NCBI GenBank assembly: GCA_050290545.1
Contig: JBNKHV010000211.1
Span: 13,463-77,462, forward strand
Source of the DNA: Polyangiaceae bacterium
Lineage (GTDB): Bacteria > Myxococcota_A > Polyangia > Polyangiales > Polyangiaceae
Direction of reading: 5' to 3'
DNA: 64,000 nucleotides
This document shows positions 18,244 to 21,575 of the stretch, piece by piece. The first letter of the stretch is position 1. Each line of letters opens with the position of its first letter. Below the pieces are notes generated by a model that saw nothing but the letters and a program-made list of their open reading frames with translations, was not told the DNA's origin and did not search any database. Position numbers and translations under genes: made by a program.

Positions 18244-21200
18244 TCAGAGCTCCCGACAATCCCCGAAGAACTCACGGCGACCGAAAGAATGGGGCCGCGC
18301 CTGCTTGATCAGGAGCGAGCGGTCGCCGTCGCTCAGCTTGAACTCGATCTCCATCGCGAACCAGCGTGCCTCCTGCTCGGGGTCCAGCAAGGGCCGAAAC
18401 CACTCGTGCACACCGCGTAGCGCGCAGCTGACCGCGTCCGCCTCGGCGGCACTCAATACGCGATCCGGGCTGCCACTGAGTGTGGCGACCAGACTGCTTT
18501 CGCCGTGGTAGACGAGGCGCGGGGTGCGACCCCAGCGATAGACGAACTGCTCGGTGCTGACTCCTGGGGCCGGATTGGTCACGCTGGCCTCTCCGGCTTG
18601 CGCGTTGATGTAGTAGATGTCTCCGCGATCCGGATCGAGCACGTTGCGGCTCACGGCAACGCCGTTGGCCTCCTCCGACAGGGAGGCGGGGTGGACCAGC
18701 ACCCCCATCGCGATGCTCTCGTCATCGATGTTGGCGAAGGCCCGCTCGTCGTAGGCGCGCAGGTTCCACAGGCTCGCCCACACCGTTCGCAACGCGTCGT
18801 CGACGCGGCGCTCGGGATCGTCTAGCTCGGCACTGACCGAGGTGTACAAGCCAGCGCCATTGAAGTTCGGCAGGTCTTCTGTGTTGCTACTGCTGCGGAA
18901 ACGCACCCGGCGGTTTCCGAAGCGCTCCCTCACCGCCTCCTCCACATCGCTCAGCAGTTCGTCGTCGACGGGCGTCTGCATGATGAGTTCTCGCACGGCG
19001 GCCAGGCCGAGTGCCCGCGTCTTCGGATCGGCGACGAATCCGGCGTCTTGCTTCAGCTCATCGAGCAGTTCATCTGCCCCGCTGGCCTTCAGGTGCTCGA
19101 GGGAGTGCACCACGGGAATGGCGAAGGGCTGGGCCGGGATCGTCGGGCGCACCGGCTCGCTACAGTAGGAGACGGTGATGTCGATGCGGGCGAGTTCGGC
19201 CATTTGCGCGGCCTTGGCGCCGATCGCCGGCAAGCTCGACAAGTCGTGATCGCTGAGAGGTTGAACGCCCCGTAGCTTCTTGTCGAGACGCGGGGCGACT
19301 GCGGGGCCTTGCTGAACGCGCTGTTGCCAGAACGCGGCCGCTTCTTCGGGGTCAGCCAGTTCGACGTCGACGCCGGTCGCGGATACTTCCAGCCGCACCA
19401 ACTCGTCCAAGTAGGGTGCGAGGCGCTCACGGGCGTTTGCCAGACTGGCGTTCGGCGTGCCGCGATTTTGGCTCAGTACGTTGACGTGCGCCAAGGGCGT
19501 TTGAAAGGCTTCGGTGATCAGACCGCCGACCAAGGGAATGTCGTTGGGTACGTCATCCGTGATGACGACGACGTTCGAACCGAGTGCTGCGTCCTCGAGT
19601 GCAGACGCAGTGACGAAGCGCAGGGTGCCGTAGGCGATGCCTTCCGTCAGTGGCTGATAGGTGACGTTCATGAACGGCGCGTTGGGCGCCACGATGGGAA
19701 GCGTGCCCTCGATTTCACGGACGCGCATGACTTGAGCGTCACCTTGCGGGCGCAGTACCCAACGTCGAGGGTTCCAGGTGTGTTCGATGGTCGAGTAGTA
19801 GCCATCGCGCATCGCGGCTGCATCGATGGAATCACCGGTCGAAAACTCGACCGACGCGATACCTGCTCCAGCATGTTCGACCAACGTGCCGAGGTGAAAG
19901 CGCCGACCGCTCGTGGCGCGATATTCCGCGTTCGAGAAGTCGACCCAGCCTTGATAGAACTCGTCGTACTGGACCGGGTCGCAGCGATCGAGCTCGGGCT
20001 CCTCGTAAATCCGCTCGCGCACGAACGTGTAGTGTAGCGGCCAGCGCGCTGCGGCCAGAAGGTGCACGAGCCCCGGTGCCTCGAAGTCGGCGACGAACTT
20101 CACGGGCGCAATCCCGAGTTGGCTGGCGCCAGCGGCGAGCTTTTCGAAGTCGGCGGGTGTTCGCAGCGCTCGGAGGCGGTCACCGATGTCGCGCTCGGCG
20201 ACCACCTCACAACCATTGGCGGCTGCTGGCGTTGCGTTGCGGCAGAAGCGCGACAAAACGGAGTCGTCTGGCACGCGGGCGAGCGTCGCCCCTTCTGGCC
20301 AGCGCATGAAGTCGACCCGGTCCAATACCTCGCCCTCATCGAAGAGCGTCAATACTCCCTCGAACTCGGGATCCGACTCGAGCTCACTCAGTACATCGCT
20401 CGGAACCTCGAGCGCAACACGTTCACCAGGCGCTAGCGTCTCGTCGGGGGGCAGCACGAGGTTCGTGCCATCTGCTGTCGTCGGCCACGGTAGAGACGGC
20501 TTGTGGGGGCTCAGGTTCAGCTGAAACTCCTCCAGAGACACCTCTGACTGGCCAGCGTTGAGCAGTTCGATGAACGCCGGCTCGTTCGTCCCGGGTCGCA
20601 GCGCGAGTTCGCTGATCCAAAGTGTCTTGGCGGTTGGGGGAAACGGGTCGGGTAACTCGTAGGCTTCGAATTCGACGTCGGACTCGAGACTCGGTGGTGG
20701 AGGCGGCGCGCAAGTGGTTGCGTTGCGCCGCCCCGGTGATGCGTAGCGACACGATTCGAAGTTGCCGGCGGCATCTGGAAAGCGCGCCAGCACCTGGTTT
20801 TGTCCGAGCGGCGGGATCACGACCGCGTCAGTGACGAAGCCGTCCGTTTCGAGCCACACTTCGTCGCCCGAGGAGCTGAGTTTGAAGGGGAGGTGGTGTT
20901 CACCTTGTTCTGGTTCGTCGTCGGCAAACACGAGCAGGCGTTGCCCTGGGTTCAACGTGCCGTTGGGCAGACGAGACGTCGCGCCCGATGCGTCCGCGAT
21001 TCGGTAGTCCGACAGCTCCAATGGCGCCTCGCCTGCGTTCACCAATTCCAGCCAGTCGTCCGCCTCGCCCAATTCGTCGATCCAGGCGCCGTCGTTGCTG
21101 GCCATCAATTCGTTGATGAGCAAAGGCCCTGCGCCGGGTGAACCTGCATCCGACCGACCCGCGTCGCTGTTTGAGGGGGAGGTCGGGGTGGTGGGTGGGG

Positions 21201-21450
21201 CTCCGGCGTCCGACACCTCCGGTGGCGTCGGGGACGACGCAGCGTCGCGCTCTGGGCCCGCGTCCGCCGAGTCTGGCATCAGTACCTTCAAGGGCACGCT
21301 TGGGGCGCGGCCGCCGTCCTGCTCCCGTTCACCCGCGCTGTCACGGTTTGTGCCACACGCAGTGAATGCCGTGGCACAGAACGCCGCCAGCGCGAAGCTC
21401 GCCCAGCAGCCGTGATTCCCAAGCGATAGTGGGGACTTCTCGCGCTTCAT
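18244..21450 (-). CDS. large lipoprotein: 2x lamin-tail domain (LTD) plus PEP-utilizing-enzyme mobile domain plus PPDK_N-type ATP/PEP-binding domain
   Basis: ATG at 21450 gives MKREKSPLSLGNHGCWASFALAAFCATAFTACG (lipobox). Two LTD-like repeats (LLINELMASNDGAWIDELGEADDWLELVNAGEAPLELSDYRI and LWISELALRPGTNEPAFIELLNAG). A His-containing segment TPLAHVNVLSQNRGTPNA resembles the phosphohistidine swivel domain. Then RVRFRSSSNTEDLPNFNGAGLYTSV matches the PPDK_N / PEP-synthase ATP-grasp signature (RSSAxxEDLPxxSFAGQ). Confidence 0.8.
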   Translation of the reverse strand: MKREKSPLSLGNHGCWASFALAAFCATAFTACGTNRDSAGEREQDGGRAPSVPLKVLMPDSADAGPERDAASSPTPPEVSDAGAPPTTPTSPSNSDAGRSDAGSPGAGPLLINELMASNDGAWIDELGEADDWLELVNAGEAPLELSDYRIADASGATSRLPNGTLNPGQRLLVFADDEPEQGEHHLPFKLSSSGDEVWLETDGFVTDAVVIPPLGQNQVLARFPDAAGNFESCRYASPGRRNATTCAPPPPPSLESDVEFEAYELPDPFPPTAKTLWISELALRPGTNEPAFIELLNAGQSEVSLEEFQLNLSPHKPSLPWPTTADGTNLVLPPDETLAPGERVALEVPSDVLSELESDPEFEGVLTLFDEGEVLDRVDFMRWPEGATLARVPDDSVLSRFCRNATPAAANGCEVVAERDIGDRLRALRTPADFEKLAAGASQLGIAPVKFVADFEAPGLVHLLAAARWPLHYTFVRERIYEEPELDRCDPVQYDEFYQGWVDFSNAEYRATSGRRFHLGTLVEHAGAGIASVEFSTGDSIDAAAMRDGYYSTIEHTWNPRRWVLRPQGDAQVMRVREIEGTLPIVAPNAPFMNVTYQPLTEGIAYGTLRFVTASALEDAALGSNVVVITDDVPNDIPLVGGLITEAFQTPLAHVNVLSQNRGTPNASLANARERLAPYLDELVRLEVSATGVDVELADPEEAAAFWQQRVQQGPAVAPRLDKKLRGVQPLSDHDLSSLPAIGAKAAQMAELARIDITVSYCSEPVRPTIPAQPFAIPVVHSLEHLKASGADELLDELKQDAGFVADPKTRALGLAAVRELIMQTPVDDELLSDVEEAVRERFGNRRVRFRSSSNTEDLPNFNGAGLYTSVSAELDDPERRVDDALRTVWASLWNLRAYDERAFANIDDESIAMGVLVHPASLSEEANGVAVSRNVLDPDRGDIYYINAQAGEASVTNPAPGVSTEQFVYRWGRTPRLVYHGESSLVATLSGSPDRVLSAAEADAVSCALRGVHEWFRPLLDPEQEARWFAMEIEFKLSDGDRSLLIKQARPHSFGRREFFGDCREL

Positions 21451-21575
21451 GTGGGGAGGGAGCGACGTGGATTCAGACATCGAATGGTCCATCTACAAGC
21501 ACCGTGCCAAGCGGGTCCTGTTCGTGGGGGGCGCCGATGCGCAAGAGTGTTGACGGACAGCTAGAGGTGGCGGGG

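Follow-up and report, generated by a model that had tools for sequence, protein, structure and literature searches.

The window (the whole stretch of DNA that was analysed, 64,000 nucleotides) carries on its minus strand a long ORF that opens with its first ATG at 21492, followed in frame by Met5 at 21480 and Met15 at 21450. Met5 is used as the start in the public gene call (P0001, 1078 aa); the true start is probably Met15 (MKREK...), which gives the best fit to a signal peptide and is also where the first-pass annotation had begun its gene of 18244–21450. That this gene is a real ORF is confirmed by at least 290 homologs of the same architecture at 50–80 % identity, which excludes a chance ORF. 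Both peptides that the first-pass annotation had singled out can be read in the translation: TPLAHVNVLSQNRGTPNA surrounds His669, and RFRSSSNTEDLPNFNGAGLYTSV spans residues 864–886. The features are as follows:

18244..21492, minus strand: whole ORF, 1082 aa from the first ATG, with the stop codon TGA at 18244–18246
21355..21450, minus strand: signal peptide and lipobox, MKREKSPLSLGNHGCWASFALAAFCATAFTA followed by C (residues 15–46; Cys46 is the predicted lipidated residue)
21136..21354, minus strand: disordered tether rich in Pro, Ser, Ala, Gly, and Asp (residues 47–119)
20707..21135, minus strand: lamin-tail domain 1 (residues ~120–262; best Pfam stretch 120–224; Cys248/Cys261 at its end)
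20206..20631, minus strand: lamin-tail domain 2 (residues ~288–429; second Pfam LTD stretch; Cys417/Cys428 at its end)
19663..20205, minus strand: middle alpha/beta domain (residues ~430–610; no Pfam family; modelled confidently within the full-length model)
19318..19662, minus strand: swivelling phosphohistidine-type domain (residues ~611–725; from the predicted structure)
18277..19260, minus strand: PPDK_N ATP-grasp nucleotide-binding domain (residues ~745–1072; from Pfam PF01326, Foldseek, and motif register)

The two lamin-tail domains (LTDs) were rightly recognized in the first-pass annotation, as Pfam LTD (PF00932) matches two stretches with 70.2 bits against a cut-off of 34.3 and Foldseek retrieves the Ig domains of lamins A/C and B with a probability of 1.00. 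In the full-length structure model (mean pLDDT 81.6), the beta-sandwich strands of the second LTD span residues 291–417, and the cysteine pairs Cys248/Cys261 and Cys417/Cys428, one closing each LTD, are conserved. Stand-alone LTD genes also adjoin dikinase genes that lack LTDs, and an HMM of these partner proteins matches the window ORF with E=1.5e-37. The middle domain is found in all family members, including the LTD-less ones, and is a candidate acceptor-binding or hinge domain. Neither the isolated middle segment nor the isolated His segment had a Pfam match at E≤10, and a profile of both, searched against PDB sequences, returned noise only (e. g., pertussis toxin at E~0.2).

At the C-terminal end, Pfam PF01326 covers residues 756–1070 (66.3 bits against a cut-off of 27, E=3.7e-18; profile positions 3–311 of 328). 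The ATP-grasp signature reported earlier is thus real; its placement at the extreme C-terminus was wrong, since PPDK_N takes up the C-terminal ~330 residues and the RSSSN motif lies in the first third of this domain. The motifs IGAKAA (K760), RFRSSSNTEDL (R866), EIEFK (E1050), and KQARP (Q1064, R1066) are in register with those of PEPS, and at least 99 % of 322 relatives share these residues; we assume for them the nucleotide/Mg-site roles familiar from PPDK mutagenesis. Foldseek matched the C-terminal domain to RPH (5hv1, E=5e-14) and also to the ATP-binding domains of PEPS, HpeI, and PPDK, while the best ATP-grasp sequence match of the family profile in the PDB was PEP synthase (8a8e, E=8e-26), again with all motifs in register.

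The assignment of the preceding domain is less direct. Of the two HMMER checks suggested in the first-pass annotation, that for PPDK_N was positive, whereas that for PEP-utilizers (PF00391) gave no match at E≤10, whether the full protein or the His segment alone was scanned. The predicted fold of this segment, however, matches phosphohistidine swivel domains, and the alignment with the His motif of PEP synthase, albeit below threshold, is in register; based on this model and alignment, the segment is probably a phosphohistidine domain. Its candidate catalytic residue is His669 (codon 19486–19488) inside the motif GGLITEAFQTPLAHVNVLSQNRGTPNA. The order previously proposed, a phosphohistidine-like segment followed by the ATP-grasp and hence the reverse of PEP synthase, is accordingly supported by predicted structure and Pfam. 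Among relatives of ~30 % identity, H669, K760, and Q664 are each retained in 322/322 sequences, R677 in 321/322, E1050 in 317/319, Q1064 in 317/318, and R1066 in 318/318. Such constancy of the putative catalytic His and of the ATP-site residues is a signature of selection for catalysis.

The N-terminus reads as a lipoprotein signal with the parts of an Lgt/LspA substrate, that is, an MKREK n-region, the h-region WASFALAAFCATAFTA, and C46; Phe at lipobox position −3 is, in our reading, atypical yet tolerated. The 80 %-identical homolog P0002 retains REK...ACGTNRDS, the lipobox column is Cys in 125 of 142 aligned sequences, and most full-length homologs have a hydrophobic N-terminus closing in [AGS]C, so that the lipoprotein signal noted earlier is kept across homologs. 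In a signal-peptide test that is crude, as 34 % of the controls were positive, 79 % of the homologs were SP-like and 44 % had a lipobox, compared to 34 % and 9 % of control ORFs. LTD-less relatives (Bacteroidota-like, Fibrobacterota, and other lineages) carry a signal peptide or lipobox at every N-terminus. At the N-terminal end, the model has pLDDT values below 50 at residues 1–61 and 75–119, with a short predicted strand (65–67) that scores higher. Mature proteins of the LTD-fused subfamily contain eight near-invariant cysteines, whose co-occurrence is confounded by phylogeny (the subfamily split) as a test for disulfides. Fusion partners are modules of extracellular type, including the LTD and, in Bacteroidota forms of ~800 aa, a module at the N-terminus, and one giant multi-module relative of 3227 aa (P0152) has repeats that by eye resemble fibronectin/Ig-type modules. 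The surprise expressed in the first-pass annotation at exported phosphotransfer machinery therefore stands, and the puzzle is strengthened by export signals that recur family-wide. Judged from the sequence, it is the predicted export that is novel, the domain order being already known.

The catalytic core defines a family of more than 3000 cluster representatives from Myxococcota, Bacteroidota, Fibrobacterota, and others, nearly all bearing a predicted export signal (signal peptide or lipobox). Its members occur in at least 596 species genomes and are concentrated in Polyangiaceae/Sorangium, Chitinispirillaceae, Fibrobacter, and Chitinophaga, which we take to be polymer degraders and predators. 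Cultured carriers include Enhygromyxa salina SWB007, Maribellus sp. YY47, Ferruginibacter sp. HRS2-29, and Chitinophaga. To our knowledge, this family is wholly uncharacterised, and a literature search for LTD plus dikinase or for exported PF01326 proteins found nothing relevant.

Among 83 loci, neighbours with a phosphate theme recur, namely Porin_O_P (10), DUF4956 (9), VTC (8), and DUF3108-like genes (7), at least one of them being present at 18 loci (22 %). This includes two close LTD-fused orthologs, one (L039, 65 % identity) with the phosphate module and another (L088, 66 % identity) with the module plus Na_Pi_cotrans and Phosphodiest (ENPP-type) genes. No phosphate or polyphosphate partner gene was found in the window or at the locus of the 80 %-identical ortholog, so the association is a tendency of the family and not a property of the window locus. 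The neighbours in the window (a PETase-like hydrolase, a 308-aa protein, and an RCC1-repeat protein) are not kept at the P0002, P0088, and P0104 loci and were hence not counted as partners. The commonest recurrent partner, c1, obtained no identity from NCBIfam or Pfam.

Taken together, we consider it somewhat probable (roughly 55 %) that the gene encodes an active, extracytoplasmic, lipid-anchored and His-dependent phosphotransferase of the PEP-synthase/PPDK/glucan-water-dikinase superfamily. In PPS and glucan water dikinase (GWD), the beta-phosphate of ATP goes to the His and the gamma-phosphate is released as Pi. By analogy with dikinases, the C-terminal ATP-grasp domain would move a phosphoryl group from the nucleotide to His669, and the loaded His domain would swing toward an acceptor site provided by the middle domain to phosphorylate a substrate that both LTDs may hold in place; this substrate is plausibly large or polymeric. 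We know of no ATP source in the Gram-negative periplasm or at the cell surface, and the absence of a known one was counted against this reading. The neighbourhoods of relatives would tie the phosphoryl economy of the family to the VTC/DUF4956/DUF3108-like/phosphate-porin module as well as to genes of the Na/Pi and ENPP types. Exported polyphosphate or extracellular nucleotides may therefore serve as the extracytoplasmic donor or as the source from which that donor is regenerated.

Conceivably, albeit with considerable doubt, the family could even form the catalytic end of a trans-envelope phosphorylation system powered by polyphosphate. Polyphosphate would then be synthesized and exported by a VTC polymerase in the cytoplasm together with the membrane protein DUF4956 (the bacterial VTC/DUF4956 pair presumably acting as an exporter, which we extrapolate from the yeast VTC complex); its handling within the envelope would fall to the DUF3108-like lipoprotein and a porin of the OprO/P type. 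The dikinase half-reactions, reversed with AMP and Pi, might convert polyphosphate into ATP outside the cytoplasm; alternatively, the dikinase might phosphorylate a surface polymer directly from polyphosphate. If true, phosphoryl reactions that need energy would take place at a site believed to lack ATP.

A different reading of the same neighbourhoods is that of a phosphate/nucleotide scavenger, which would consume extracellular ATP or other nucleotides (set free, for instance, when prey lyse or biomass decays), use water or some trivial acceptor, and release Pi for phosphate porins and Na/Pi transporters in a Pho-like response, with no dedicated polymer substrate. The phosphate-selective porin O/P, Na/Pi cotransporter, and ENPP-type phosphodiesterase/nucleotide pyrophosphatase genes near relatives favour it, and so does the company that LTDs are said to keep elsewhere, reportedly extracellular nucleases and phosphoesterases according to Mans and colleagues (2004) and the Pfam description of the domain. 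We nevertheless regard scavenging as unlikely, as far simpler hydrolases would suffice, VTC makes polyphosphate and is ill-suited to pure scavenging, and the three-domain swivel with its strictly conserved His and conserved middle domain argues for a specific acceptor. Should this acceptor be a crystalline or matrix polysaccharide such as cellulose, chitin, exopolysaccharide, or prey wall, the enzyme might act at the surface as a polymer phosphorylase, much as GWD does on starch granules, and loosen these insoluble materials for hydrolases, consistent with the GWD-like layout of His before ATP-grasp with N-terminal binding modules, with the concentration in known polymer-degrading or predatory lineages, and with partner genes whose exported products contain CarboxypepD_reg or SGL propeller domains. 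This proposal is rather improbable, however, given that neither the protein nor its recurrent neighbours revealed a carbohydrate-binding module or a glycoside hydrolase and that the problem of the energy source remains.

Two further scenarios were weighed. Lipoprotein toxins delivered by outer-membrane exchange are described in the literature (PMC5562445, PMC8546572). Like the SitA toxins of myxobacteria, a lipoprotein in a myxobacterium, with a giant multi-module relative (P0152), could be passed to other cells and work on the ATP present in the cytoplasm of its target. We hold such an effector or toxin to be very improbable: its orthologs are conserved at 50–80 % identity and show no polymorphic C-terminus, no conserved adjacent immunity-like gene was found at the loci compared, the neighbours handle phosphate rather than secretion or immunity, and in Bacteroidota and Fibrobacterota, where the family is widely distributed, its members have ordinary signal peptides. 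Equally slim are the chances of an exported pseudoenzyme or adhesin that uses the dikinase fold as a scaffold, or of a cytoplasmic enzyme starting downstream of the hydrophobic segment. While the divergence of the His domain past Pfam detection and in-frame alternative starts at residues 66–130 would allow for these, the pseudoenzyme or adhesin conflicts with the at least 99 % conservation of the candidate catalytic His and the ATP-site residues in 322 sequences of ~30 % identity, and the cytoplasmic enzyme with a signal/lipobox region that is conserved as protein in orthologs and, together with exported-type N-termini across phyla, is unlike a non-translated leader.

In Gram-negative bacteria, enzymes that depend on ATP are assumed to work only in the cytoplasm. 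If the lipid-anchored phosphotransferase proposed here is active outside the cell, it would imply either a phosphoryl donor outside the cytoplasm that has so far escaped notice or a novel type of surface phosphorylation in predators and polymer degraders.

Among known dikinases, GWD/PWD (EC 2.7.9.4 and 2.7.9.5) come closest in layout, and Pfam has a dedicated GWD phosphohistidine model, PF22973 (GWD1_pHisD), upstream of PF01326. GWDs comprise N-terminal substrate-binding modules, a middle region, a phosphohistidine domain, and a C-terminal nucleotide-binding domain (PMC12892837). The order of His domain (611–725 here) before PPDK_N (745–1072 here), behind N-terminal modules, was described in the first-pass annotation as circularly permuted and is in fact the arrangement of plant and bacterial GWDs. 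The two nucleotide-binding domains are homologs by hhalign (probability 98.3 %, E=1.8e-14), and the His motifs are alike in pattern (TPDLVSHVAVRARN vs QTPLAHVNVLSQN). In contrast, PF22973 has no match in the protein, and hhalign of the family His region gave a probability of 0.07 against one bacterial GWD-type pHis sequence, a single template reconstructed from a frameshifted contig and hence a weak test. The starch-binding modules CBM45/CBM20 are absent by Pfam and replaced by LTDs, the alpha/beta middle domain has no family assignment, and the FRSDSNGEDL...AGLYDS motif, which follows the GETLVG region in GWD, here precedes WASxWN as in PEP synthase; in the profile–profile alignment with GWD, the RFRSSTNAEDL block of the family stays unaligned at its PPS-type position. 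Finally, GWD acts inside plastids or cells, whereas the present protein bears a lipoprotein export signal.

PEP synthase/PPDK (PF01326, PF00391, and PF02896) share the ATP-grasp sequence, its motif register, and the swivelling His fold. They differ in order (in PEP synthase, the ATP-grasp occupies residues 7–359 and the His motif 400–456), the export signal is peculiar to our protein, and PF00391 is undetected in it. Pfam likewise found no PF02896 PEP/pyruvate-binding TIM barrel, so that the earlier label of a PEP-utilizing enzyme has to be dropped. NCBIfam PEP synthase models score 40–43 bits (42.9 vs 598) against cut-offs of 598–740, and the RPH model NF041857 reaches 37.8 bits against 999, on the ATP-grasp part only. 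RPH is cytoplasmic and, with its order of ATP-grasp, rifampin-binding domain, and His domain, built unlike the protein described here; its kin include flavonoid and phenyl-phosphate synthases, among them the split form HpeI. Membership in GWD, PPS, PPDK, or RPH was rejected, and the protein is not filed under any of them, because their defining features failed the tests.

A parallel of another kind is offered by CotH proteins, which function extracytoplasmically, in the spore coat, and frequently carry fused LTDs. The neighbourhoods of the dikinase family described here yielded no adjacent CotH gene. CotH-type kinases are another family of ATP-dependent phosphotransferases that clusters with VTC polyphosphate polymerase and DUF4956, as described for conserved clusters (PMC2879425) and for Gram-positives (bioRxiv 10.1101/768473); their fold, however, is protein-kinase-like, as opposed to the ATP-grasp plus His swivel seen here. 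The VTC/DUF4956 link of the putatively exported dikinases suggests a parallel to these CotH–VTC–DUF4956 clusters of Gram-positives and provides a testable handle on the role of bacterial VTC-type "polyphosphate polymerases".

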